Positions 9,152-28,118 of a DNA stretch of 64,000 nt are shown one piece after another; position 1 is the first letter of the stretch; each line of letters begins with the position of its first letter. Location: contig CP075493.1 of assembly GCA_021613535.1 (NCBI GenBank), positions 13,144,001-13,208,000 on the forward strand. The letters are read 5' to 3'. Below the pieces are notes generated by a model. The model ran no database searches. It was not told where the DNA came from and was given only the letters and a program-made list of their open reading frames with translations. The position numbers and the translations under genes were made by a program. Origin of the DNA: Adineta vaga (taxonomy: Eukaryota; Animalia; Rotifera).

Positions 9152-9311
9152 TAAAATCAAGAAATCGTTTCGATCTGATTTGATTTTTTGACTGAAACTC
9201 ATATTCTCACGGACTCTATCCTTGTAATGTATCATTGGTTTGTTATCATGTTTTATTATTTGTCTTTTTACGTATGTTGTTTTTTTTTGAAAGAAAATAA
9301 AATATTTTGCC

Positions 9312-11039
9312 ATGTTTAACAAACGAAGCATTATGAAATTGGAAAATTTACCAAATGAAATATTCATACATTGTTTTGAATATCTCAATGCTTCGGACAT
9401 ATTCTATGCATTCGAACAACTAAATCCTCGATTTTATCGATTGATTCGAACAATTCCATTGCGTCTTAATTTTCAAGACATTCACAAATCAATCTTTGAT
9501 CGATTTTGTGAGAAAATGATAGATTATACAGAAATTCAACAACAAATCTATTCATTAAAACTATCAAATGAACAAACACATGGACAAATTCAAGCATTCT
9601 TCATGTGTTTCTCATTGGTTCAATTCACTCAACTTCGATCATTAACTTTGATTGAGATTCAAGAGCAGAATGTCGAACAATTATCATCATTATTACCATT
9701 ACTAACACAACTAACATGCATTCGATTGATTCATTCTGTAGATGCTTATGATCTTTTTCGTTACCTTCCGAAATGTAAATTAAACACACTATCATCTCAA
9801 GAAATTATACCACTGACAAAGTTGTCTGTAAAATTTTGTATGTTGAATGATATATATCGAATATTGCAGGATATGCCATTATTGCAATGTTTACATATTT
9901 CGAGATGTCTTCAGCATGAATCAATATCATCCATTGACATACATTGTCTTCGTGAACGTGTTAATCATCTAAAACACCTAGTTATGTCTGATTGTATAAT
10001 GATTAAGACGGATAATTTAATGGATGTCATTGCATACATGATCAATTTACGAAGTTTAACTGTTTTCGTAGATGGAAATTCCGATATAATTAATGCTTCT
10101 CGTTGGCAACAGTTAATCACATATTCATTACCACATTTAGCTGTGTTTCGATTTCGATTTGGTATCTTTGATCGAAATGAAATAGTTCAAAAGTATTACG
10201 ACTTTCAGAGTGATTTTTGGATCAAAGAACATCAATGGTACACAGAATGTTTATTAGACGATCAAACTAAATCATTCATTCTCACAGTTCCCTATCTAAA
10301 TAACAAACAACCAATGACGTTAAAGTGTGTTCGACACTTTAATATGTTAGTTGATCCTTCCAAGACGTTCAATAATGTTACAAATTTATGGTTACAAGGT
10401 GAAGAAGTCATGATATCGAATAACTTTTATTTTCCACATATCACATCATTAATTATTGCTTCTCTACCTAAACTTGTTGATGAAAGTGATGAACAAAAAT
10501 TCATCATAGCTCTGAGAAGAACAATGGATATGTCACATCTCAAACATTTAAAACTTCCACTAGGTTGTCAAGTAAGAAGATCAAGAATTTTGTTAGAAAT
10601 TTTCAAACAAGCATCACGCTTAATATCACTTGATATTTTCAAATGTGCTATTGATATGCTGAAAAGTAATAAGCAAATATGTCGATATACAAGTGAAATG
10701 ATTAGAAAATTACAATATCATAGATGTTTCCAGCATTGTATACACGATGTGTCTTTTAATGTGAATTTAGTCCGTGAAATATTTCCAAATATTGAGCAAT
10801 TGATTTGTAAGGTGCAGGAACCAGTGGAATGTTTATTATTATTGAATAATTTACCCAAACTATCAAGATTAAGCGTTGTTTTTCTTTACAAAAATGACCT
10901 GAGTCCTTTCAATGCGATGAAAGAAGAATTATCAAAATTGAAGAACATCTGTTTCTACGAGAACATACAACAACGTCATGGCATTATAAAGATGGTAACA
11001 TTTGGCTTTTGGGTTGATCGTGATAACATGACTTCATAA
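9312..11039 (+). CDS. F-box-like domain + leucine-rich-repeat-like protein, intronless
   Basis: N-terminal LENLPNEIFIHCFEYLNASDIFYAF; repeated LxxLxL motifs; RWQQLITYSLPHLAVFRF block also seen in 21018-22791. Confidence 0.8.
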   Translation: MFNKRSIMKLENLPNEIFIHCFEYLNASDIFYAFEQLNPRFYRLIRTIPLRLNFQDIHKSIFDRFCEKMIDYTEIQQQIYSLKLSNEQTHGQIQAFFMCFSLVQFTQLRSLTLIEIQEQNVEQLSSLLPLLTQLTCIRLIHSVDAYDLFRYLPKCKLNTLSSQEIIPLTKLSVKFCMLNDIYRILQDMPLLQCLHISRCLQHESISSIDIHCLRERVNHLKHLVMSDCIMIKTDNLMDVIAYMINLRSLTVFVDGNSDIINASRWQQLITYSLPHLAVFRFRFGIFDRNEIVQKYYDFQSDFWIKEHQWYTECLLDDQTKSFILTVPYLNNKQPMTLKCVRHFNMLVDPSKTFNNVTNLWLQGEEVMISNNFYFPHITSLIIASLPKLVDESDEQKFIIALRRTMDMSHLKHLKLPLGCQVRRSRILLEIFKQASRLISLDIFKCAIDMLKSNKQICRYTSEMIRKLQYHRCFQHCIHDVSFNVNLVREIFPNIEQLICKVQEPVECLLLLNNLPKLSRLSVVFLYKNDLSPFNAMKEELSKLKNICFYENIQQRHGIIKMVTFGFWVDRDNMTS

Positions 11040-11383
11040 ATATATATAGTTCCATCCATATCGAACTGTGTGCATGTTCTGAATAATCGAGTTTTACATG
11101 TATGGAACGATCAGATTATAGTTAGCATTTCATAATTATCATATAAAACATAGAAAGATATTATGATTTTCAACAAAGCTAATGACGCACTACATCAGAT
11201 GTTGTTGTTTTAAGTTAAATAGAATTTTATTCATATCTGGATCGGAATGTGCGTCATAAATTTTAGAAACACATTATCAGGAGTTATGAGACGGAAATTC
11301 TGAAATCCGTTGCAAATTTTTAGTTAGATAGAACACATTCTGTTCCACTAAATCTCATCATAAAAGAATTAAATTCATGAAAT

Positions 11384-14300
11384 ATGAAGAACCTATCTTT
11401 ACTGATATTTTTCATATTATTCTATGTTTGCAATACTGGATATTCTATATATCATTCTGATGAATTATCATCAATGAACTATGGTTTTGATTGTCTTTAT
11501 GCTTATTTAACAGATGATGAAGAAAACCGTGATATTTCTTCTGACGTAACTTATCATCTGATTCCTTATTGTCGAAGATTAATTGATAATGAAGAGCAAG
11601 ATCAAGATCCATCGATTTCCTTAGATGATGTATATAAAAGTATAACATTTGAAGATTTATATAAATCTGATGTGACAAGCGAACAATTACTGAATTGGAA
11701 AGCACCAATTGATCTAGTCGAAAATTATATAATAAATCATACAGATCCAATGAAAATGTTTTATAATTGTACCTTACCATGGTTTGGTTCAACATGTCAA
11801 TACAGTTTTGATAATAAATTATCACTATCATTTGGTGAGATTGTTCGATTAAATTTTATTACACGCATAGAACTTTCCGAAGACTTGCCGTCTTCATTCA
11901 ATATTGGTACATGTTATCGATTTTTAACTAATTGTCAATATAAACATGCATTGATGTGTCTTGATTGGCGCGAAATTTGTGATGGAAAATGGGATTGTAG
12001 TAATGGAGAAGATGAAGAATATTGTCGAATATTGGAAATAAATCAATGTTTAGATGGTAATTATCGATGTCATTACAGTGGAGAATGTTTACCAACAACG
12101 TTTGTACGAGATAAACGTAATAATGTCGAGTGTCTCGATGGTACAGACGAAACAGATTATAATATAGAACAAAGGAATACTTTTGGAGCTTTATGTTATA
12201 GAGTTCCAACATTTCGATGTGAAGAAAGAACCAATCGATTTCCATATTCTTTTCAATGTGGTGATGGGCAATATATACCTCCTGAAGAATTTACGAGGCC
12301 TGATATATTCTGTAACAATGGTCGGCATATACAATTAGTATTCTCAGAAAAATCTTCATATTTATATATTCCACAAGAAATCATTGCAGGAATATCTCAA
12401 CCCACATTAAACTCAATTATAGACATTTTAAATCGAACATTAGCAAATTCGAACACGATCTACTCATTGATCTTTTGTGCATCTACTAACAAAGAATGCT
12501 TATCCAAATGGTATTTTAAAGTTGAATTATTTAATGTAAATCCTATATTTCATTTTATTTATCTACCCAATAGTCTAATTGAAGATGCTTTATTTTCTGA
12601 AAAACCTGATTTTATTTGTTTCGATAAAAAAAGTTGTCCTGGATTGATTCAATATGCAACAGATATCGGATTAACAAATGGACTTGTTTGTTGTCGTTCT
12701 ACTAAAATAACTAACGAATCATTGTCCAGTAAAAGAGAAGTACTCGAAGCTATGGACAAATTATTTCATCGCTGTGTAACGACTGGTAATGAAGAATCAT
12801 GTTCTCATTCATCTCTATTTCATTGTCCGTTCTCAATGAAATGTATTTCAAAACATCGTCTCGTTAATGGTATTTCCGATTGCTATTACAACGAAGATGA
12901 AATATTTCCTGCTTGTCAATTGAATGATTCACAACGGTTTATTTGTAAATCTGAACCAAATAAATGTTTATCACCAATAACATTACAAAATGGAAAAAAT
13001 GAATGCAAAGATAAGGAAGATGAAATGAATGAAATTCAACAAAATATCTTCAATGGATATATACCTATGGGTCTTGTGTGTGATGGTAATAAGCATATAT
13101 TATTATCGAAAGCAAATGAAACAGATGAAACAAATTGCCAATTTTGGCCATGTAATAATCCTTATACTCGATGTAATAGTTATCGGAATTGTGATGATAG
13201 TTCCGATGAATTGAATTGTCCTCAAATGAGCTATACATTGAGTGATGGTCAATGTCTTAAAACAGTATCGACAGATCTCTTCTGTGAACATACAATGCAT
13301 ATATTGGAAAAATATTTTCAAATTACCATCTTGTATACTGAAAATAATAATTCTTTGTATAACATGACAGATATTAGTACTGCAAAGTGTTTCACAGTGG
13401 CGAATTGTCTTTCTCTACGTCAAGTATGCCAATTTTTCTTAAACAATCTACCGACTCTCTATTTATGTGATGTAGACAATGTAAAATATTGTGTTTGGGA
13501 GCATCTTTATTGGATATCGATCATTCGAACAAACATATGTCCTTTTCGTTTAGACGTTACTGATGATGCTGAACGAACAGGAATGTTTTTGACATCATTA
13601 CAATTGGGTTATTTTCCATCTACATCAATACTATGGTCTAATAAAACAAATTCAAAAATTGAAAAACCAACAAATATTAAACCACCGAAGAAAAGTGAAG
13701 AAAATTGGTATTGTAATCGAGGAATTGTCGTTCGGTTTAACAATGTTAAAACAAAAAAATGTTTATGTCCACCAAGTTACTTCGGTGATCGATGTCACTT
13801 GCAAAATCAACGTATTAGTTTAACACTTCAATTCGAATATCGTACAGATATTTACATGAATACAATTTTTCAAATTATTATCATGCTTATCGATGAACAA
13901 AGACAAATAATACCTTATTATGAACAAATTACATATGTACCAAAAAATGATTGCGGTAGAAAATACAATATTTATTTACTCTATCCAACTAAACCAAAGA
14001 ATCTTTCGGCGAACTATTCAATACATATTGATTTATATAATAAAATCTCCCTAACATATCTAGCAAGTTGGCATCTATCGATACCATTTCAATTTCTACC
14101 TGTTAGTCGAATTGCAAGTCATTTGCTTCTACCAAATACATTAATGACTTCAAAAATATGTCCTTTATCTTGTGGTCAACATGGTCATTGTATTGAATAT
14201 ATCAATAAAAATTTCTCATATTTTTGTCGATGTAATCGAGGATATTCTGGTTTATTATGTGATATTCAACATCATTGTTCTTGTTCATCAGATTCCATTT

Positions 14301-16087
14301 GTCTCTCACCATCGATCTGTATTTGTCCATTGAATAAATTTGGTTCAAAATGTTATTTAAATCATTCGAGTTGTCAAATAAATCCTTGTCAAAATAATGG
14401 TCTATGTGCACCTGTTGATGATCGTATTGGATTAGATAAATTTATTTGTTTATGTAAAGAAAATTTCTATGGATTAACATGTGAATATTATAAGAATCGT
14501 ATTGATATTGAATTTGATAATGATGAAATCAATCTTATGCCATTTATCTATGTTCATTTTATTACAATCAATGAAATTTATGATCATCAACATACAACAG
14601 CTTTAAAAAAGATTCGTATTGGACAAAATATCATTACAATCTATATTAGACATGCATTTCATATTGTATTTATTGAATTAATTGATCATACGTATTATTT
14701 AGTAGTTTTACGAGAGAAATTTATTGAATCGGAACATATTCGAACGAAGGTAATATCAAATCATCGATGTTTAAAGATACATGAATTAATGAATATTACT
14801 TTTTTAAACTCTTCATTTCTACATCGAGTTAAATATTATCCATCATTATGTCAACAAAATTCAAATCTCATGTGTTTTTATGATGAAAGACATATGTGTG
14901 TATGTGATGTCAATCGTTTTTCCAATTGTTTTACATTTAATACTTCATTATCGTATAATTGTCGTGGTGAAAATACATGTGAACATAATGGTCTATGTTT
15001 TCAAGATAATCCAACATGTCCGATACAATCAGTCTGCGCATGTCCCGAATGTTACTATGGTACGAAATGTCAGTTTTCAACGAAAAGTTTCGTTTTTTCA
15101 CTTGATTCAATTCTTGGTTATCATATTCAACAGAATATTTCCATAAATCAACAATTATTTATTATTAAAATAAATCTTTTTATTGTAACATTGATGTTAC
15201 TATTTGGTTTAATCAATAGTGTATTATCAATTGTTACATTTCGTAATAAAAAAATCAATAATATTGGTTGTGGTGTTTATCTTTTAGTTTCATCATGGAA
15301 TTCTTTATTTTTAATTATTTTATTCTATTGGAAATTTTGGCATTTAATTCTATCACAAATGTTAGTTTTAACGAATCGATGGTATTTGAAAATGAATTGT
15401 ATTTTATTAGATATGATTATTAATGTTTTCATTTCAACAAATGATTGGCTTTATGGATGTGTTGCTATTGAACGAGTAGTTACTGTGTATCAAGGTGTGA
15501 AATTTAATCAAATTAAAAGTAAAAAAACAGCAAAATGGATTAGTGTATGTATATTTCTTCTGACAATTTTAACGCATATTCAAGATCCTGTTCATCGTGG
15601 TTTAAATAATGATATTGATAATGATGAACAACGAACTTGGTGTATTGTTCAATATTCTTCATCACTCAACATATTCAATATTTTCATAATTCTTTTTCAT
15701 TTTCTTACACCTTTTTTAATTAATTTAATATCAACATTTCTTATTATTATCTTGATGGCACGTACTCGTTCAATTGCTCAACCTCGATCGACATTTAAAG
15801 AACATGCACGACAACAATTTCATCAATATAAACACCATTTAATTGCCCTATGTGTATTATTATTATTAAGTTTACCACGTCTGATTATTTCATTTATTAG
15901 TGGATGTATGAAATCATCAAGAGTGCCATGGTTGTTTCTTCTTGGCTATTTCATGTCCTTTATACCATCAATGATGACATTTTTTGTATTTGTATTAACA
16001 GCAAAAAGATATAAAGAAGAATTTAATTTAATTGTACAACATACAATTCGACGAATTCGTAGACGATTTCTTCAAAGAAGATTATAA
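11384..16087 (+). CDS. Large intronless GPCR with signal peptide, LDL-receptor class A repeats, EGF-like repeats and a 7TM domain
   Basis: Signal MKNLSLLIFFILFYVC. LDLa motifs (CLDWREICDGKWDCSNGEDEEYC). EGF motifs (CLCPPSYFGDRC, CQINPCQNNGLC...CKENFYGLTC). Seven C-terminal TM segments with AIERV. Confidence 0.9.
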   Translation: MKNLSLLIFFILFYVCNTGYSIYHSDELSSMNYGFDCLYAYLTDDEENRDISSDVTYHLIPYCRRLIDNEEQDQDPSISLDDVYKSITFEDLYKSDVTSEQLLNWKAPIDLVENYIINHTDPMKMFYNCTLPWFGSTCQYSFDNKLSLSFGEIVRLNFITRIELSEDLPSSFNIGTCYRFLTNCQYKHALMCLDWREICDGKWDCSNGEDEEYCRILEINQCLDGNYRCHYSGECLPTTFVRDKRNNVECLDGTDETDYNIEQRNTFGALCYRVPTFRCEERTNRFPYSFQCGDGQYIPPEEFTRPDIFCNNGRHIQLVFSEKSSYLYIPQEIIAGISQPTLNSIIDILNRTLANSNTIYSLIFCASTNKECLSKWYFKVELFNVNPIFHFIYLPNSLIEDALFSEKPDFICFDKKSCPGLIQYATDIGLTNGLVCCRSTKITNESLSSKREVLEAMDKLFHRCVTTGNEESCSHSSLFHCPFSMKCISKHRLVNGISDCYYNEDEIFPACQLNDSQRFICKSEPNKCLSPITLQNGKNECKDKEDEMNEIQQNIFNGYIPMGLVCDGNKHILLSKANETDETNCQFWPCNNPYTRCNSYRNCDDSSDELNCPQMSYTLSDGQCLKTVSTDLFCEHTMHILEKYFQITILYTENNNSLYNMTDISTAKCFTVANCLSLRQVCQFFLNNLPTLYLCDVDNVKYCVWEHLYWISIIRTNICPFRLDVTDDAERTGMFLTSLQLGYFPSTSILWSNKTNSKIEKPTNIKPPKKSEENWYCNRGIVVRFNNVKTKKCLCPPSYFGDRCHLQNQRISLTLQFEYRTDIYMNTIFQIIIMLIDEQRQIIPYYEQITYVPKNDCGRKYNIYLLYPTKPKNLSANYSIHIDLYNKISLTYLASWHLSIPFQFLPVSRIASHLLLPNTLMTSKICPLSCGQHGHCIEYINKNFSYFCRCNRGYSGLLCDIQHHCSCSSDSICLSPSICICPLNKFGSKCYLNHSSCQINPCQNNGLCAPVDDRIGLDKFICLCKENFYGLTCEYYKNRIDIEFDNDEINLMPFIYVHFITINEIYDHQHTTALKKIRIGQNIITIYIRHAFHIVFIELIDHTYYLVVLREKFIESEHIRTKVISNHRCLKIHELMNITFLNSSFLHRVKYYPSLCQQNSNLMCFYDERHMCVCDVNRFSNCFTFNTSLSYNCRGENTCEHNGLCFQDNPTCPIQSVCACPECYYGTKCQFSTKSFVFSLDSILGYHIQQNISINQQLFIIKINLFIVTLMLLFGLINSVLSIVTFRNKKINNIGCGVYLLVSSWNSLFLIILFYWKFWHLILSQMLVLTNRWYLKMNCILLDMIINVFISTNDWLYGCVAIERVVTVYQGVKFNQIKSKKTAKWISVCIFLLTILTHIQDPVHRGLNNDIDNDEQRTWCIVQYSSSLNIFNIFIILFHFLTPFLINLISTFLIIILMARTRSIAQPRSTFKEHARQQFHQYKHHLIALCVLLLLSLPRLIISFISGCMKSSRVPWLFLLGYFMSFIPSMMTFFVFVLTAKRYKEEFNLIVQHTIRRIRRRFLQRRL

Positions 16088-16569: not shown

Positions 16570-18864
16570 TTATGTAAGTTGTAGGAATTGATTTCCTTTA
16601 TTGATTGCATCTAAATCGTTTTGTGTTTTACCACCATGTTGATTAAGATAGGTTTCTAATTCATTTTTTCGTTTAGAAATTGTTTCTTCAAATGTCTTTT
16701 TTCGTTTGTCTGCTAATGCTTGTACTTTTTCTTGAGCTTCTTCAGTATCCTTCAATAACTTTTGTACAGCTTGTTTTCGTTCTTGATCTGTTTGCATGCC
16801 AAACATTCTTGCTAATCCACTTAACTTATCCATCATAAATTCATTTGAAATATCTACATAGGTACGAGACATTACGTAAAGAATAAAAGTTTGCCGATGA
16901 ATATCCATTGCTTGTCCTTTGAGTAAATCAATGTAGAATAGTCGTTCCGATGGCGTAATATCATCGAGAGATGAAACTTCTTTCATACGATCAACAAATG
17001 GTACTAGAGTTTCCTTTACAGCGATTTGAGTACGAACGGAAATTTCAGAGAAAAATTGAACTAGTTGTCCCCATTGAACTCGAATGTTACCCAGTAGTAA
17101 GATAGCTTCACGTAAAAGATCAATAATTTGTTCATAATTAATCTTTGTCATATCAAGTTGTGAAATTTTAATCATCAAATCTTTCATCTTATTTTCCTGT
17201 TCCAACATTTGTTGAAATAATGCATCTGAACGTTGTTCAGCTTGTTGAAGACGTTGTAATGTTACGGTAACTTTGAATTTTTCATTATCATAATTGCCGA
17301 CATTTGATGAAGAAGGTGATTGTTTTTGTTGTTCTCCGCCCTGTGGTATTGTATCTTCAGCATCGACTTTCGTCGAATTCATTGATTTAGCCGCAACTAA
17401 CGGTTTCAATTGCTCAAGCGAAGTTGTTAGTAGACTGGTAATGTTACTAGCATCTTTCAAATTTGTTACATCGGCAACTGTTTGTAAAATACTATCGACT
17501 TTTTTCGTTAGTTCACTATCATCTTTGACGGTATTCATTATTTTTTTCATTGCATTAAAACCGACTTTATATGACCCAAAATTTTTAGTCAATGATTCAA
17601 TATTTCCATCGGCATTATTTGTTACAGTTTTTAACATTGAATTCGCCTGGTCTGATAACATATTTGCAACAGCCATTGATTGACTTGAAACAATCTTATT
17701 GCTCAAACTGGGAAGAGTATTACTGCCAGAATTGCCAACAGATGCCGCTCCTGCTGCAGCTGCTCCTGCTGGTCCTCCAACAAAAGCACCTACCAAAATT
17801 GGTGCAATATCATCGACCAAATCAACAATTGCTTGTGCAAAATTCTGTAAGATTTTTTCCCAACCAGTTGGCAGATCCTTCAATGCTTTTGTATATGCTG
17901 ATTGTGCTTGTCTTATTTTTTCTTGTGCTTCATTGTACTGTTTTTGGACTTTTTCAATGATCTGTGCTTGATATTGTTGAGCTACACGTGACGCATTAAG
18001 TTCCATTTCAACTTCTTGAACCTTCTGCATATGTACACCTTGTGTTAAAACTGTTATTTCAATGACTTCACCTAATAATTGCATAACATTTATAAATGCA
18101 TCATGTGTATCAGAAGCCAATTTAGAACATTCTTTTCCAATCCGATCGATGTTATTTAATGATGGTATTAAGAGTCTTTCAAGAAGTCTTGGCGAAGATT
18201 GTACTAAGATTTGAAATGAAGTTTTTACATGTTTTGGAATTTGTGCCATGTACAATTGAATTGTGTTCATTGAACTGTGTGCCTTGTTGAAAGCTTCCCA
18301 GCCATCATTAGAAATTTGAATTAGAGTAGCACGATAGGATTGTGGATGACGAATATATTTGAATTTGTAATCATTCACACTGTCCTTGAAAGAAAAGTCG
18401 ATTTTAGTAGAAAGGACAATGAGTTGCCCGAGAATATTGATAGCAACAGGTCCAGCTGAGATAAACCGTTGCCAAGGATAATCAATACCGGTCTGACTTA
18501 GAATTTGTTCATCCATTTCCTGTTTGAATAAACTATCGATATTCGTCGATTCATTAGCTATGAAAAATAAAACTTAGTGGGAATGATACAACCATGTCTT
18601 TCTTACATGTTGAGCGACGGTTTCTATTGTTGATTGGCAATGTCAATGAATTATAAAATGGATTCAATGCAGGATCAGGTGGAAGAAAAACATCTCTCGA
18701 TAAAAGAAATGATTGATCCTTGTTATTACTGACGATTTCAGATGCAGAAATATGCAAATAGAAATTGAATAAAATGGATAGACATATGAAACCTAACGAT
18801 TTCTATTGAAATCAATTACAAAATGTGTAAAAAAAGACTCACCCTTGTGGAATAATAAATTCAT
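16570..18864 (-). CDS. Secreted ~730-aa alpha-helical coiled-coil protein with a propeptide furin site (RNRR) and a central Gly/Ala-rich hydrophobic segment; 3 exons (18864-18843, 18792-18607, 18557-16570)
   Basis: Phase-1 introns 18793-18842 (50 nt) and 18558-18606 (49 nt) give MNLLFHKGFICLSILFNFYLHISASE...NRNRRSTSNESTNIDSLFKQEMDEQI, continuing into the 648-aa ORF. Hydrophobic segment IAPILVGAFVGGPAGAAAAGAASVG lies between long heptad helices. Confidence 0.75.
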
Positions 18865-18995
18865 AGGTAGCTTTATTAATCTAAAAAGCAATAGAGAAGA
18901 GGTAATAAAAATCATTACGATTCCTTAAGTGTTCTCTTTATATAAAGCAAAAAAAGAATAAATATGTATAAAGCTTTTTGAATAGGATGTTGTCT

Positions 18996-20123
18996 TTATT
19001 TCGTGCTATTACAATCGGCACGAGTTAGTAAGGTACTGAATGGCATTTGTGGTAAGGTATTGGCTAGTTGATCTAAACTCTGTTTTACTTGCGTCAACGT
19101 AGCATCACTAATGACATTGACAGATGTATTGACCAACACATTTCCTTTTGTTAATTCCGTATAAATTTCATTCAATGGACTAATCAGTAAATCGAAATTG
19201 ATCAAATTTGCAATCGTCGTGTAAAGAACAGATGATGCATCCCAAATTTTTGAAATATGATCGATAACCCGTTTTAAGTCATAATTGATTGTTGCTGTCG
19301 TATTTTGAACATTGTTAAGAATACTCAAAGCTGATTGTAATTCTTGTAATTGTGTTTGTAACTGTTTTAATGCTGCTTCTAAACTGGATTTCTGAGCTTG
19401 TAAAGACGAGAGTTGTTGACGAACATTATTGACTTGCTGTTGTGCACTTTGTAGCTGTTGTTCCGCATTATGACGTGCATCTTTAGCGTTATCAATTCCA
19501 CCCGAATTTACAACGCTACAAATTGGTTTTTCTATTACTTTATCGATTATCTTTCTTATCGGTTTAAATATTTTACCGATGAGACGTTTTCGTCGTCGTT
19601 TTCCACCTAGACAATTTCGGGCCTTATCAACCTTTTCTTGTGCAATCCGAAGAGCATTTTCAGCATTAGCCAAACCTTGTTGCTTGTCTCTCAGACCTTG
19701 TACAGCTGTATTTAACTGAGCTTGAACACCCTCAATTTCTATTGTTTTCTGTTGGATTTCACCTTGTTTACCAGTAATTTCTCCTTCTTTCGCACTAACA
19801 GCAGCAACAACATCGACAACCTTTTGATCGATTTCTACTCGAAGTTTTTGACTGTCATTAATGGCTTTATTCACTTCATTGTAGAAATTTTGTACAGCAC
19901 AAGTTAAATTCTGAACAAGCTGATTGACGGCGGTTTCATCGTATTTAGTGACATCGATCAAGAGTGGATTTAGAACATTTTCTTGTAGAATTGTATAGGC
20001 AGCTTTGTATGCTGGTACAACGGATTCTGACATTTTCGTTGCATACCATGTTTGGGTAATATCCTGGCATTGGATGATGATACCAATGGAAAATAAGAGT
20101 AGCGTTGTGAGAATAAATTTCAT
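18996..20123 (-). CDS. Secreted 375-aa coiled-coil protein with a Cys-bracketed polybasic furin site followed by an amphipathic cationic helix
   Basis: ATG at 20123 gives signal MKFILTTLLLFSIGIIIQC. Long heptads flank C-LGGKRRRKR-LIGKIFKPIRKIIDKVIEKPI-C (19518-19613). Confidence 0.8.
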   Translation of the reverse strand: MKFILTTLLLFSIGIIIQCQDITQTWYATKMSESVVPAYKAAYTILQENVLNPLLIDVTKYDETAVNQLVQNLTCAVQNFYNEVNKAINDSQKLRVEIDQKVVDVVAAVSAKEGEITGKQGEIQQKTIEIEGVQAQLNTAVQGLRDKQQGLANAENALRIAQEKVDKARNCLGGKRRRKRLIGKIFKPIRKIIDKVIEKPICSVVNSGGIDNAKDARHNAEQQLQSAQQQVNNVRQQLSSLQAQKSSLEAALKQLQTQLQELQSALSILNNVQNTTATINYDLKRVIDHISKIWDASSVLYTTIANLINFDLLISPLNEIYTELTKGNVLVNTSVNVISDATLTQVKQSLDQLANTLPQMPFSTLLTRADCNSTK

Positions 20124-20697: not shown

Positions 20698-21017
20698 TTT
20701 TCACTATACTCATACTGTTATCAGCAAAATAAAAAAGAATTGAAAACGAGAGAAGAAAATCTGCAGTCGAAAAAAATCAACGTGTTATTTTCCGTTCTGT
20801 GAGTTGATAAAAAGGTTTTTTTTTATGGTAATCGTCAATAGAAAAGGTCGTATAGAGTATAGAACAAATATTATTTACTATCGCTCTTTGACTACTCACA
20901 GAGAGAGAGAGAGAGAATGAAATAAATATTGTGGCGCGTGTTCCATGCATACAGGTAACGAAAAGCAGAAGACTTTTTTGGTCTAGTAGATTTATAGCTA
21001 TTCAAAGCCAACTATCA

Positions 21018-22791
21018 ATGTCTACGGTATCTCTCAACGGTCTTCCTATTGAAATTCTCCATCGGATTTTTGATGAGCTCGATGTACAGACCATTCTTGG
21101 ATCACTTCATCACGTCTGTACTCAACTTCGTGCAATCACGAATACGTATGATCAATACAAGTTAAATTTTAGTTCGATTTCAAAAACCCATTTTGATTCG
21201 ATTTGCCGATATATTCGTCCAGAAAATGTAACTCTTCTAACACTGCACGATGGAAATAAAACGCCTGGTCAAATCGAATTGTTTGTATCGCTTTTTCGCA
21301 TCGACGACTTCACTCGACTTCGTTCATTGTCTATTTGTTACATGGATAATCATACTCTCAATACAATTTTAATGCAAGCAATGAACTGCCCTCTCGAAAA
21401 TCTTTTGATCAAGACACGCGATCATAACATCACCGATAAAACACTCGAGCTTCTCGGAACAATCATTTCGAAGTCGAGTCTTCGAAAACTAGATATCAGC
21501 ATGCTGTATGTTTTCATTGAAAACATTCCTTGGCCAAGTCAATGTTCAATTCAACATCTGACTATTGGTAGTTGTACACTTGACAAGTATAAAGCTATTT
21601 TGCGTCATTCACCGCATTTGAGCACGTTTATCTTGAAAGATTATTCAATGAAAAACATTGATCCCGCTGTATTTACACCCAATGCATCAGCATCTTGCGA
21701 ACAATTGACTTCGTTGACATTGAAAAAAACGCAACGATCGATGAGTGAACTTGAATTACTTCTTTCATGTACACCATCACTTACTCATCTTAAATTGATA
21801 AGCGATTTACCTGCATCAAATACGTTGTTTGATGGAGCTCGGTGGGAATTTTTTATTGAGCAACGATTACCGCAACTCGAAAAGTTCGAATTCTTCCTTT
21901 CAAACACACAAGTGAGAGATCCAGCGTCGATTAATATCGACTTGTTAATTGCTCGATTCGAAACACCTTTCTGGCTCCACCGTAAGCGCTGGTTTATTAT
22001 GTGCAATTATATTCCAGATGCAACTCGTCTCAATCTTTATACGTTACCAATATGTGAAACGCTTTTTCTTTATAATTTCTATTCGAAAGCTATTTCACGC
22101 ACAACATCAAGTTCGGCAGCTAATGATGAAGGTCTTATGAATAATGTGCGTACAATACGAATGAACTTAACACAAGCAGCAATTGATCTCAGTGAAAAGA
22201 AGGTAAACGGAGCGCCTTTCTGTCGTGTTGTTTTTACTTCGATCGAGAAATAAGAGTAATGTGATTTTTACGTTTTAGAATGAATGTTTAACAGCTCCTC
22301 GCCAGTTTCGTCGCGTAAACGAACTGAGAGTGATTGTTGATGGTGAATGGCCAATTGGATCGCATCAATTTCTCTCACAATTGATCGATCTATCATATAT
22401 TACCAAAATCATGTTGGGCATTGATTTTCATCGACTTGCTAATCAATGTACAGCTACTGATATTCGCACGCTGCTTGAACAAACCTGTAATCTTTGTTCA
22501 CTCGAATTTTTGCGCGCGAACGTCACCAATCAATATAACACAGCTATAGAGAATGTCCTTTTAATGATACCATCTCGTGTCAAACATTTGCGAGTGTCAG
22601 CGAAGACTCTCGATGATATGACTATGATTTTGGAACAGCTCAAGCATTTATCAAGTGTATCATTTCAACTCAATGCACTTGATTCGACACTATGTCAACA
22701 GTTGTTCAAATGGCTCGCACAGTCAGGAAGAGATTTTACTCAACGGCAGTACAAGTGCTGCATACAATTATGGCTCGGCAAAATTACATAA
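21018..22791 (+). CDS. F-box-like + LRR-like protein, 2 exons (21018-22202, 22279-22791)
   Basis: MSTVSLNGLPIEILHRIFDELD F-box-like start. Phase-0 intron 22203-22278 joins the two ORFs in frame. ARWEFFIEQRLPQLEKFEF block. Confidence 0.8.
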
Positions 22792-23047: not shown

Positions 23048-23356
23048 CGAGAGAAGATTCCCAGGTGTTGCGCTCCATCTTCAATCGCACATAGACCATT
23101 TTGTAGAGTGAGTGATTGTGAATAATTTCGTCAGTCCATTTGGCTGAGTATTTTAAAACCCGTTTACAACAGTCCCTCATCACACCTGTGCAGCAATAAT
23201 ATCTTTATCATTTTTTCAATAGTTGAAAACACGAGCGTTGTGTATGATGAAATATAACACGTTCTCTTTCGTACTTTATGCACGCGTACTATTCACGTAT
23301 ACACAGCATGCTTCTCTGTATAAGAAGGTGAGAAGAACAGCGAATTCTCATACACT

Positions 23357-25027
23357 ATGTTATTTCAAACTTGTTCTACATCCACAAATGGTTGGGTGTT
23401 TGTTGTTTTATTCATGTTAATTTCTCCAGCAGTGTGCTTAAATGTTTTGATCGTAGTTGATGGTGCTGCCGGCCATCTAACACCAGTGTTTGAATTAGCT
23501 AAGGCAATGAAAAATCATAATATTACTTTTCTCACTCAACAACTGGCTCGATCTTTTATTGATATGGAATCGTTTTCATCTCCTCTATTTCGTTTTGTAT
23601 ATACTGATGATTCACCCGAAGCTTTTCTTAAAGAAAAATATCTTCAAGACCAAATAAATATGGGCATGACTAACCGTTCGATACTTGATGTATTTCCCGA
23701 AGCAGTACCACTAGTCATTAAAACTTTGATACCATTATTGAACAAAACAATCCATATTTTGATGCACGAACGTTTTGATGTAATTGTAGCTGGTCAGATG
23801 GTTTTTGGGATACCATTGTTGTGCCATAAGATTTCAACACCTTGTGTTATTCAAAATGCAGCACAATTTCCTGATCTATTCGATTTTAATGTTCCAAATG
23901 AGTTTATCTTACTTACATCAAACGAAATCACTCAATTTACATATCGTGTTTACAATGTAGTGTTTGCTTTGAATGTCGCAATCAGATTAATACCAAGATT
24001 AGTACCCAAACTTTACACACTTTTTCAATCGTTACCACAAGTGCCAGGTCCATTTTACGATACTTTCACATTGAAAAATTTTCTATTTTCAAAATCTAAA
24101 TACCTTAATTTAATTAGTATACCACCTTCATTTCCGACAGCATCACATCCGCATCATTATCGAAAGTATTTGGGTCCATTTATAGATGAAACACCTATTG
24201 ATGCCGATAATAGTACTCTAATTATGTGGATCAAATCAAAACCAATCAATTCGATTGTATATGGAGCTTTTGGTAGTACTTCTCTTATTAATTATGATCG
24301 AATGTACAATTTAATCAATGGTCTAGCAATGTTTTTGCTGCAAACAGAGAGTAGTTACCTAGTATTAGCATTGCGCAATACCAACTATGATACATACAAC
24401 GTAGTCTTGAAAGACTTACCTAATAATGAATATCGTCAAGTTTTAGAAAATCAAGAACGAGTGAGAATCGAACAAGGATTCGTTAAACAAAAATCGATTT
24501 TACAACAAACATCTGTGAAACTATTTTTGAGTCATTGTGGAATGGGTTCTGCTATGGAAGGTTTGTATTTTCGTAAATCCATAATATGTATGCCATTCAA
24601 TATGGATCAATTTCATAATGCAATTACGATCGAGCATTTAAATATTGGACAATCATTGTTTACCCGACCTCCATTATTACAAACATTGCTTAGTCTTGGC
24701 GATTTTACAAAGTATACATTTACGGCTGAAAGTGTAACAAACAAATTAATGATTCTATGGATGAATACGACGTACGAAAAAGCAACTGAACGTATGTCAC
24801 TAGAAATAAAACATGCAGGTGGTTTGAAGCGAGCTGTAGAAGAGATCGAATTTTTTGTTAATCTCGATGGAAATCTCGATCATTTCGAACCCTTTCAAAA
24901 TACTCTACAATTATATCAACGATATCTTCTAGATATACTAATTGTATTCATCATTTTACCTCTGATGATCATAACTAGTCTCATTTTGAAATGTAGAAGA
25001 AGACAAACAAAAACTAAAAAAGACTGA
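23357..25027 (+). CDS. UDP-glycosyltransferase (GT1 / UDP-glucuronosyltransferase type), ER membrane-anchored, intronless
   Basis: Signal peptide; GAAGHLTP catalytic His; signature FLSHCGMGSAMEGLYFRKSIICMPFNMDQFHNA; C-terminal TM and dilysine-type tail KTKKD. Confidence 0.92.
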   Translation: MLFQTCSTSTNGWVFVVLFMLISPAVCLNVLIVVDGAAGHLTPVFELAKAMKNHNITFLTQQLARSFIDMESFSSPLFRFVYTDDSPEAFLKEKYLQDQINMGMTNRSILDVFPEAVPLVIKTLIPLLNKTIHILMHERFDVIVAGQMVFGIPLLCHKISTPCVIQNAAQFPDLFDFNVPNEFILLTSNEITQFTYRVYNVVFALNVAIRLIPRLVPKLYTLFQSLPQVPGPFYDTFTLKNFLFSKSKYLNLISIPPSFPTASHPHHYRKYLGPFIDETPIDADNSTLIMWIKSKPINSIVYGAFGSTSLINYDRMYNLINGLAMFLLQTESSYLVLALRNTNYDTYNVVLKDLPNNEYRQVLENQERVRIEQGFVKQKSILQQTSVKLFLSHCGMGSAMEGLYFRKSIICMPFNMDQFHNAITIEHLNIGQSLFTRPPLLQTLLSLGDFTKYTFTAESVTNKLMILWMNTTYEKATERMSLEIKHAGGLKRAVEEIEFFVNLDGNLDHFEPFQNTLQLYQRYLLDILIVFIILPLMIITSLILKCRRRQTKTKKD

Positions 25028-26186
25028 TAGATACTCTATATTTTCGATTTTGTTCGATTTTGATAATTAGTTTATTGAATGAAATCTACCCAAGATAAGC
25101 AAATAGGTTCTTTTTTCAGGAAAATAAAATAATTACTTCACAGACACAAAAAAAAGAAATCTAGATTTAAAGCGGTTATAAACGTATGCGAATTATAATA
25201 TTAGTTTCCCATCAATATGAATCTTTTCTATCATACTGATCCTTGTAAAAATCGTTTGAAGAAAAACCGTTCGATAAAAACATTGATAAACAAACAAAAA
25301 CATATTGATGACACTAGAAGTTCAGTTCTATTTAATTTCTATTCAAAATTATTGAGACAAAGTACTTGAAAATGAGAGAAGATTTATTATAATAGAGAAG
25401 GATAATTGTGCGAGGAGGAAGTATCGGCACATTTCGATTACATCTCAGAAGAACAGTAACGGTTTTGTTAGAGAACTTGGTCACTGCCAAATTTCGCTTA
25501 CCATTATTTCTAAAATCACCTACTACTCAATCTAATTTTGGATAACTATTAAAATTTATGTCTCACCGACAAGCTGCCTTATTGCGTTAGACTGAGTAAT
25601 TTAGTTCCACATCTTTTTGATGGCTTTCGTTAAATCTAAGAGTTTCCATAGATTATTTATCTGAATATATCATTCTTGTAGAGTATCCTATAGTCACAAT
25701 GAGAAAAGTGTGAAAAAGGCGATAGAAAATCTGCTTTTCAACATCGTCTATCCTTGAATAATTGAATCTCTGTGAATGGACTCTATAGAACCTCAAAAAT
25801 CGGAACGAGTTCAATCGTTAAAAACTATCTATATATATAACTATGTGTGAATTGAGCAAAAGATTGAACTTTATTTTCCTTCAAAAGTAGACACTTGATA
25901 GTCTGATTTTGTATTGATCCTTGTATCTTGAAGAAAATAGTTTTGTTTATATGGATTTTTGCCTCGTGTTTTATCAATCGTAATAACTCGTCATTCACCT
26001 GTTTATTCTTTCCACGTTTTATAATAATACATACTCATTGATGCAAAAAAAAGAAATACCGAAGGGAAAAAACCTACAAAAAAGAATGTGAATACACTAT
26101 ATAAAAGAAACTATACATCTTCTACTCATTGATAATCATTTTCTTACCAATAATCTGATTTAACCGCATCTTAGATGCATTAATCA

Positions 26187-28118
26187 ATGAATCATACAGA
26201 ATTAGTGACAGCCAGTAACTCTGTTGGTGCGCAAAAACCAATATCAACACGTTTAAATATTAATCACATGCAACGACGTATAACTGATCATTGTCTCCTT
26301 ATATGGGTAGATGCTGATATCGATGAATCTCACGAAGATTGTCAATCTACATTAGCACAATTGCGTGCTGTCGTTAATAGCGTCGAGATATCCACTCGAC
26401 CAGAAAGATGTATCGAGTTTATCAATGAAATCGATGACATCAAGGCTTTCGTCATTGTTTCAAAGTCTTTAGTTCAAGATTTATTGGTAGATGTTCATAG
26501 CATATCGCAACTAGAAGCCGTTTACATTCTTGCCGATGATAAATCATGTCATGAAGAGCCAAATAAAGAATGGAATAAAATTCAAGGAGTATACACGTCA
26601 ATTACATCCATTTGTGATGTATTGCAACCCATTGTTAAACAATATGATCATAATTCTATTGCTATGAGTTATGTGCCGATGAGTGAAATAGAATCTTATG
26701 ATAATTTGAAGCAATTAGAGCCTAACTTCATGTACACACAGATTTTCAAAGAAATCCTACTTGACATGGAATACGGCGAACAATCGATTAAGGAATTAGC
26801 TACTTACTGGCGCAAACTGTACGCTAATAGTACTGTAAAAATGGACATAATCAATCGATTTGAACGTGAATATTCTTCAAATATGGCGATTTCTTGGTAT
26901 ACCGGTGGTTCTTTTATCTACCGGCTATTCAACCAAGCACTTCGAAATCTTGAAGTTGAGACAATTATTAACATGAGTTTCTTTCTTCGTGATATTCATC
27001 ATCAAATACAACAATTACATCAACAACAAATCACAGATTACAAAGGAGTGCCATTCACTGTTTACCGAGGACAAGGTCTTTCTAAAATTGATTTTGAAAA
27101 ACTGTTGAAAACCAGAGACGGACTAATATCTTTTAATAGTTTACTATCTACTACTAAATCTTCAAGCATTGCCCTCCCTTTTGCCAATGGTGCAGTGATA
27201 GATACATCTACTGTTGCTGTACTTTTCATAATGCTCATCGATCCAGCAATCATATCAACTCCATTTGCTTTCATCCAAGACGTTAGTTCTTTTCAAGAGG
27301 AAGAGATTCTTTTTTTCATGCACACGGTATTTCATGTAGGCGAAATAAAACCACCAAATGATAAAATTCCCGCTTATCAAGTAAATCTTCAATTGACTGC
27401 AGATGATGATGAACAACTTCGAATACTTACCCAACATATACGAACAGAAATTAAGGCTCCAACCGGATGGAGACGACTATCCATGTTGTTGTTGAAATTA
27501 GAGCAGTATGACAAAGCTGAAGAACTTTACAATGTCTTGCTCGAGTAGACATCTACCCCGCGAGATACGGCATTTTATTATAATCCACTTGGAAGCATTA
27601 AAGATAACCAAGGTGATTATCAGAAAGCTATCTGTTACTATGAAAAATCATTTGCAGTGGAGGAAAAAATTCTTCCTAAAAATGATCATCATATAGCTAC
27701 TCTCCACAACAATCTTGGTGCGATATATCAAAACCTAGGAGAGTACTCAAAAGCACTTTCGTTATATAAAAAAGCATTTGACATCCTACAGGGATTATTA
27801 CCTTCAAATCATCATCATCTTGCTTATTGTTACAACAATATCGGTGATGTACATCGACAAATGAAAGAATACTCGAAAGCACGTTTGTTCTATGAAAAAA
27901 ATCTTGAAATTCTGCAACAAGTTCTTCCTATAAATCATCCTTTATTGGCCTCTTCATGCAACAATATTGCTTGGGTATGTCAAATGATGGAAGACTATTC
28001 AACAGCACTTTCTTATCTTAAACGTGCTCACAATATTTATCAACGTTCGTTACCTCCTAATGACTCGAGGATTGCAGATATACAATATGGCATTGAGATA
28101 GTAGAAAATAAAATTTGA
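26187..28118 (+). pseudogene. Receiver-like N-terminus + ADP-ribosyltransferase + TPR repeats, interrupted by one in-frame TAG (27546-27548)
   Basis: VYRGQG, FNSLLSTT and EEEILF motifs. ORFs 26187 and 27657 share a frame, and the intervening sequence reads TSTPRDTAFYYNPLGSIKDNQGDYQKAICYYEKS (a TPR repeat). Confidence 0.8.

Follow-up and report, generated by a model that had tools for sequence, protein, structure and literature searches.

A tandem gene pair of Adineta vaga predicted to encode secreted ClyA-like proteins: a candidate two-component pore-forming effector

Genes A and B are adjacent and separately spliced

The sequence analysed here, called the window throughout, is a 64,000-nt stretch of the bdelloid rotifer Adineta vaga (contig CP075493.1, positions 13,144,001 to 13,208,000). 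Its minus strand carries two co-oriented genes, A and B, whose predicted products resemble ClyA-family toxins. Gene B (18996..20123) is an intronless open reading frame (ORF) with its ATG at 20123 and its stop at 18998-18996; it encodes 375 aa and is matched by RNA-like contigs running from 20141 to 18931 or 18882. Gene A (16570..18864) starts at the ATG at 18864, consists of three exons (18864-18843, 18792-18607 and 18557-16570) and encodes 731 aa with no internal stop. In the direction of transcription B comes first and A second, B lying 131 nt upstream. An initial annotation, made from the letters alone, had placed two co-oriented genes about 130 bp apart and had rebuilt A across two introns of about 50 nt, and both statements were confirmed. 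Intron 1 (18793..18842, 50 nt) and intron 2 (18558..18606, 49 nt) have GT-AG borders and are skipped by contigs in 2 of 4 and 3 of 4 runs, respectively. The skip of intron 1, which joins A's own exon 1 to exon 2, was seen again in a second contig comparison. These contig runs were only guessed to be RNA, none being recorded as such, and all spliced runs carry one study code.

The exon-3 protein of A is 100% identical to part of the GenBank hypothetical protein I4U23_004323 (1064 aa), in which the public annotation joins gene B to gene A. Among the six runs compared, one of which gave no matches, we found neither a contig joint for the GenBank fusion splice nor a contig bridging B to A, an absence that contigs cannot prove. 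B contigs read past the B stop into the 3' untranslated region (UTR) in all four runs; the outer flanks are without coverage. Since both A introns are spliced and contigs run through the B stop, A and B are two expressed, separately spliced genes and the public fused model is probably a prediction error.

The intergenic stretch (18865..18995, 131 nt) comprises the B 3' UTR, a TATA-like box at 18944 and, 17 nt upstream of the A ATG, a pyrimidine-AG acceptor-like site at 18881. The AATAAA of the B 3' UTR, at 19000, overlaps the B stop. Contigs of B stop between 18931 and 18940, except for one that reaches 18882, and the A contig starts at 18877; no loose contig end suggesting a spliced leader was seen at 18881. 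Gene A may have its own promoter inside the B UTR, or may be trans-spliced from an operon-like transcript. An in-frame upstream ATG lies at 18915, outside A contig coverage, and contigs of two runs carry an 11-nt insertion allele in the B 3' UTR at 18990.

Both proteins have signal-like N-termini and candidate membrane elements

Signal peptides were judged from hydropathy alone. B has a signal-like peptide at aa 1-20 (20064..20123), with a Kyte-Doolittle 19-mer (KD19) peak of 1.98 at residues 1-19, and the N-terminus of A is signal-like as well, with a peak of 1.56 at residues 10-28. Both had been proposed in the initial annotation, as had the polybasic sites, the Gly/Ala segment of A and the amphipathic helix of B described below, all of which are present.

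The most distinctive part of B is a loop delimited by Cys171 and Cys202 (19518..19613), which are predicted to form a disulfide. It lies at the stalk tip of the structural model, between helices 63-178 and 207-296, and carries the polybasic furin-type site KRRRKR (aa 175-180; 19584..19601) and, directly after it, a cationic amphipathic helix (aa 181-201; 19521..19583) with a net charge of +4 and a moment of 0.77. The highest hydrophobic moments of the whole protein (0.69-0.87) were obtained for the 18-mers at residues 176-183. A run of six K/R occurred in 0.05% of 20,000 shuffled B sequences, and any R-x-K/R-R motif in 4%. In an alignment of 13 B-family sequences, 12 retain Cys171 and 11 retain Cys202; Cys75 and Cys371 occur in 13 and 12. 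R-x-K/R-R is present at the tip loop, which has low confidence in the model, in 11 of the 13, and the helix that follows has a net charge of +3 to +7 in 10 of these 11.

In A, the furin-type site RNRR (aa 64-67; 18614..18625) closes a propeptide that holds a conserved F-L/P-P...N-P-F motif; a regular expression for this motif matched 14 stored proteins, mostly near-identical Rotaria copies. Further downstream, an uncharged Gly/Ala hydrophobic segment (17734..17808; KD19 1.67-1.75) follows an amphipathic helix at the stalk tip and is a candidate membrane anchor. It is followed by a four-helix insert (17377..17706; model residues 284-393), which lies between the stalk helices and outside the match to bacterial proteins. 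This insert is missing from the short A-family variants of two metagenome loci (L002, 3224-4339, and L004, 235-1701), where the hydrophobic tip runs directly into the return helix. Twenty-eight of 187 profile-matched proteins show a gap at this place, some of them probably through gene-model errors.

Predicted structures suggest a ClyA-superfamily fold for A and, less clearly, for B

A was modelled from its exon-3 part (661 aa) with an alignment of 92 sequences (predicted local distance difference test, pLDDT, 81.5; predicted template modelling score, pTM, 0.66), and B with 13 sequences (pLDDT 77.6, pTM 0.61). The A model has helices at 6-49, 74-119, 122-226, 422-529 and 535-584, which are predicted to form a five-helix head bundle with a long hairpin. 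Helices 122-226 and 422-529 make up the stalk, and between them lie a stretch at 229-280 (the amphipathic and hydrophobic elements, with low pLDDT), the insert at 284-393 and a linker. The B model is also a long hairpin, with a smaller head bundle that seemingly has one N-terminal helix fewer than the five-helix head of ClyA. Both models contain between the stalk helices a candidate membrane-active element, modest in hydrophobicity and low in pLDDT. According to PMC6162564, ClyA-family proteins are five-helix bundles whose membrane-active parts are located between the stalk helices; the candidate membrane elements of A and B lie at this very place, which supports a ClyA-type reading.

A wide search of 48,161 solved chains with the A model gave XaxA as the best match (Z 18.8, root-mean-square deviation (rmsd) 4.3, 314 residues aligned). 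Ranks 1-8 were all ClyA-family proteins, and the first unrelated row had a Z of 13.2. In the VIA second look at the Foldseek candidates, ranks 1-17 belonged to the ClyA family (including AhlB, MakA and SmhB), with YaxA at Z 19.6 (rmsd 5.7, 313 aligned) and XaxA at Z 19.4 (rmsd 4.1, 292 aligned). Many distinct family members were matched, over 85-99% of the length of the target chains. We conclude from the model that A very probably has a ClyA-superfamily fold.

With B, Foldseek placed AhlB and SmhB pore chains at ranks 1-10 (E 1.9e-5 to 2e-4). The VIA comparison with AhlB gave Z 13.8 and rmsd 3.8, with 274 of 322 residues aligned over model residues 15-325, and XaxA came first in the wide search (Z 13.0). 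The family matches of B span model residues 15-333 with Z values of 13-13.8, near the helical background, helical models reaching Z of about 13-14 by chance. Pfam Bacillus_HBL (PF05791) matched B at E 5.9e-4 (20.1 bits) and, best among its relatives, P0018 at E 7.8e-6 (26.3 bits), both under the gathering cut-off of 29.1 bits; PF05791 had no match on A. These sub-threshold matches are weak but independent hints of the family of B, which we consider likely to share the fold. ClyA-family folds had been proposed for both proteins in the initial annotation, and the models bear this out strongly for A and moderately for B.

The B-then-A arrangement recurs in other bdelloids

The adjacency, whose conservation the initial annotation had proposed as a check, is kept in other rotifers, at least in bdelloids. 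Rotaria socialis has B, a second copy B' and A on consecutive accessions with matching contig sizes (for example 35,617, 33,218, 33,216 and 104,057 bp), and Rotaria sp. Silwood1 has B and an A fragment on one 5,486-bp contig; in these two species the pairing is read from accession order and contig size, not from DNA. Fused B+A gene models are found in Didymodactylos (P0002, P0120) and Rotaria sp. Silwood2 (P0048). Four metagenome loci were available, and in the two that are long enough to tell (L001 and L002), B precedes A in the same orientation. L002 keeps this order at only 36% identity to A. In both loci A has its own signal-like start; the A protein of L001 carries a furin site and its B is in three pieces. 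The B tip of L002 has a dibasic site, not a full furin motif. Adjacency and co-orientation were thus found in Adineta, R. socialis, Silwood1, Silwood2, Didymodactylos, L001 and L002. In addition, the single-ORF proteins P0143 and P0183 consist of an A-family part with a hairpin fused to its N-terminal side, which the B profile matches (47 and 11 bits, versus -4 and -3 for the reversed sequences).

A belongs to a large animal family

The profile of A matched 1,532 clusters at E <= 0.001 (428 at 1e-30) among 1.84 billion. Names were looked up for 18 of the best 150 clusters and included skink, lungfish, whale shark, a characiform fish, Daphnia, gecko, python, newt, Lingula and the tardigrade Hypsibius; turtle proteins are further members. 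By sequence, then, the A family is large, has no annotation and occurs in many animals including vertebrates; it is not rotifer-specific. The ESM Atlas returned Chordata and Ascomycota clusters at 0.97-0.98 and PF05791 clusters at 0.84-0.86, all with low recognition, the latter being leads only. In a midpoint-rooted tree of 96 sequences, A grouped with rotifer and tardigrade proteins (support 0.999), apart from a vertebrate clade. In the rotifer-tardigrade group, 7 of 11 full-length proteins have a signal-like N-terminus, compared with 2 of 15 in the vertebrate group and 1 of 38 among the remainder. Unlike most vertebrate members, the newt proteins P0099 and P0221 begin with a signal-like stretch and contain a furin motif (as measured on P0099), which suggests a separate move to secretion.

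Three long A-family hits, a skink gene model and two single-ORF proteins from 3.3-3.8-kb contigs, have an N-terminal hairpin with a hydrophobic tip (KD19 2.0-2.2). Gecko and turtle encode the N-terminal part of the skink model as a gene of its own. The B profile scored 47, 11 and 5 bits on the three hairpin parts, versus about -4 to 1 for reversed decoys, and a profile-profile comparison gave a probability of 88% over 194 columns, tip on tip. Because of coiled-coil bias, this similarity is suggestive only. The reptile partner proteins resemble the B profile weakly (6.0, 4.8 and -1.9 bits). A move of the hydrophobic tip from A to its partner in vertebrates is only half supported: tips of the partners are more hydrophobic (KD19 1.9-2.2), but those of A vary little from clade to clade (median 1.27 versus 1.06).

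These data can be read, tentatively and as a possibility less probable than its negation, as an old two-component eukaryotic ClyA-type system in which an A protein of about 700 aa is partnered by a hairpin protein of about 300-370 aa, encoded upstream or fused. Bdelloids would represent its secreted, convertase-armed branch with a disulfide-tethered furin loop, while most non-rotifer members, which have no signal peptide, would act from the cytosol as lytic effectors of cell death or of intracellular killing. Such a system would extend over sharks, lungfish, amphibians, reptiles, teleosts, crustaceans, brachiopods, tardigrades and rotifers, and probably ascomycetes. As to its origin, none of 69 pattern matches in GTDB genomes was confirmed as a prokaryotic relative; this word-based search is insensitive and a bacterial donor is therefore neither shown nor excluded.

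Two A-family gene models have additional domains. In P0123 (987 aa), an A-family protein is combined with stonustoxin-like domains (PF21109, PF18078) and FN3 repeats; the model may be mis-joined, and is a hint that A-family genes lie beside another pore-former locus in some animal. P0219, a Didymodactylos model of 949 aa, ends with NHL repeats.

A and B share features with bacterial toxin pairs

The closest known systems are XaxAB of Xenorhabdus and YaxAB of Yersinia, which gave the best structural matches of A (Z 18.8-19.6) and the first wide-search match of B. They too are encoded by two adjacent genes and have a head bundle on a long coiled-coil stalk. In the available parts of PMC6086661 and PMC7979752, one XaxAB subunit is described as anchoring by a hydrophobic tip, while the other swings out an amphipathic helix and forms the pore. 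Several features differ. No sequence similarity is detectable (7-11% identity in structural alignments). The rotifer pair has introns, and its products have eukaryotic signal-like N-termini, a propeptide in A and a furin loop set between two cysteines in B. At roughly twice the length of a XaxAB/YaxAB subunit, A also has the four-helix tip insert and extra C-terminal helices. The B model is closer to XaxA and AhlB than to XaxB, and the amphipathic helix of XaxB swings out without proteolysis, whereas B has a furin-type site. The tripartite alpha-helical pore-forming toxins (AhlABC, SmhABC, MakABE, Hbl and Nhe; PF05791) provide the best Foldseek and VIA matches of B, namely pore forms of AhlB, SmhB and MakA, and A also aligns with them (Z 18-19); B shares with them the weak PF05791 hit. 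Unlike them, the rotifer system has only two genes (three in R. socialis, via B duplication). Neither model contains a beta-tongue; both are all-helical, in a pore-like state, maybe through modelling bias.

Single ClyA/Hbl-like genes in animals are already in print. The excerpt of PMC11731912 describes a family of Drosophila hemolysin E-like (HlyE-domain) proteins, of probable prokaryotic origin and scattered over drosophilids, which act in anti-parasitoid defence; as is predicted for A and B, they are secreted animal members of the ClyA superfamily, and they have an immune role, but that excerpt describes no two-component pairing or furin loop. A teleost "Cry6Aa homolog", HOG0034670, was named by HHpred only (PMC12107551, in part), and cnidarian PF05791 genes, wound-induced in an anemone, were named by Pfam (PMC5288695, in part); the available portions of both articles give no pair, mechanism or family survey. 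PMC13622607, as far as its available text goes, treats the ClyA family as bacterial, and PMC11258130, from its available text, is a pathogen-challenge study on other gene models. A search of the open literature, which did not cover subscription journals, found no paired or furin-gated animal ClyA system and no report on these rotifer genes.

A proposed mechanism

Together, these data lead us to favour, by a modest margin over its negation, the view that A and B form a secreted, convertase-armed two-component ClyA/XaxAB-type pore-forming defence effector. Of its parts, a membrane-damaging role of A and B is likely, and obligate cooperation of the two is somewhat better than an even prospect. 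A and B map onto the anchor and amphipathic-helix roles of XaxAB, from which we infer the following steps. Both proteins would pass through the secretory pathway, where a furin-type convertase would cut the stalk-tip loop of B and create a new N-terminus, the cationic amphipathic helix, which may stay tethered through the Cys171-Cys202 disulfide. The Gly/Ala segment of A would serve as its anchor in the target membrane, and A would pair with B through the head bundles, as XaxA does with XaxB. The A-B pairs would then oligomerise into a pore lined by the B helix. The optional four-helix insert of A might shield the tip or aim the complex, and the targets are likely microbial or parasite membranes.

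Multi-component ClyA-type pores have so far been described as bacterial weapons. If the proposal is true, A and B would represent a new class of animal pore-formers beside MACPF, aerolysin-like and gasdermin proteins. The protease-gated amphipathic tip of B would be a feature without counterpart in the bacterial pairs, and the system would be a candidate for bdelloid attack on fungal and other parasites. The analysis also assigns a fold to a large set of "uncharacterized LOC" genes of non-mammalian vertebrates and invertebrates, and corrects the public gene model, whose fusion conceals the A-B pair.

Alternative explanations

Several observations weigh against this proposal. The "protease-armed" character given to the pair in the initial annotation is well conserved in B, with R-x-K/R-R in most loops, and not in A: only 3 of the 11 full-length sequences of the A clade have the furin site, which the R. 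socialis and R. magnacalcarata orthologues (P0005 and P0006) lack. Within the B family, the post-cleavage helix of P0018 has a net charge of -2, the site of P0022 is only dibasic and the loop is missing from P0021. Neither tip looks like a strong transmembrane hairpin: the KD19 of 1.75 in A is matched by a window in the first head helix, and the B loop reaches only 0.75. As regards structure, Foldseek with A ranked an unrelated umbrella-toxin chain first and AhlB second (E 7.8e-3), and a dynein stalk (Z 13.0) and Smc (Z 12.5) matched B nearly as well as toxins did, though over about 130 residues only. Sequence and profile searches of the PDB with A and B returned no solved toxin, only generic coiled coils and designed bundles. 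Finally, R. magnacalcarata accessions for A and B do not line up, and tandem paralogy alone can explain the adjacency. The last point is part of an unlikely, though the most serious, alternative, in which damage of the ClyA type is done by separate homo-oligomers (as with ClyA, Cry6Aa or AhlB alone), or B chaperones or inhibits A, or the pore requires a third subunit, the adjacency reflecting old tandem duplication and co-regulation. According to the available part of PMC13622607, AhlB and SmhB, the best matches of B, make pores of homodimers; moreover, two B genes adjoin A in R. socialis, most A-family hits have no known partner, and a comparison of the A profile with the B profile gave only a weak match, of 95 columns (probability 7.6%). 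Set against this are the order kept in the diverged L002 locus, the single-ORF fusions of a hairpin with A, and tips that look complementary, hydrophobic in A and amphipathic in B.

Rather less probable is a domesticated toxin fold with a non-lytic job on the animal's own membranes, such as wound sealing, remodelling or fusion, or gut lipid handling, with a B helix acting like a fusion peptide or an antimicrobial peptide. A furin cut that bares an amphipathic N-terminus resembles class I fusogens, a point in its favour; a viral structure library searched with B gave coiled coils only and no fusogen match. Several runs, whose conditions are not stated, contain A/B transcripts. Sea anemone PF05791-domain genes are strongly up after wounding (PMC5288695, in the part available), and MakA alone is reported to tubulate membranes. 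The Drosophila HlyE-like proteins, on the other hand, are described in the excerpt of PMC11731912 as secreted, parasitoid-induced and parasite-binding, and lineage-specific duplication with varied tips would suit conflict proteins. That A and B are ordinary secreted coiled-coil proteins, whose toxin matches reflect long helices only, appears very improbable. Pfam hits, like those in the PDB, are to generic coiled coils, and the Z values of B fall in the chance range, but the ClyA matches of A stand more than 5 Z over the first unrelated row, with the breadth and coverage given above. We give hardly any credence to a single gene that makes the annotated 1064-aa fusion, in which the hydrophobic N-terminus of A would be internal. 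The public model, its fused counterparts in Didymodactylos and Silwood2 and the single-ORF proteins P0143 and P0183 speak for it; the exon 1 to exon 2 joint of A, the passage of contigs through the B stop and the separate signal-like A starts in L001 and L002 speak against it.

Neighbouring genes

Upstream in window numbering, a plus-strand gene at 11381-16087 converges on gene A and encodes, in a single frame, a 1,568-aa rhodopsin-class G-protein-coupled receptor with LDLa and EGF repeats. The neighbours at 9291-11039, 20892-22791, 23324-25027 and 26184-28118 are, by Pfam, F-box genes on both sides of the pair and a UDP-glycosyltransferase gene, followed by a gene with a C-terminal part that resembles TPR repeats by eye only. 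GC content at third codon positions is 0.23 for A and 0.26 for B, close to that of two neighbours read in frame (0.16 and 0.25).

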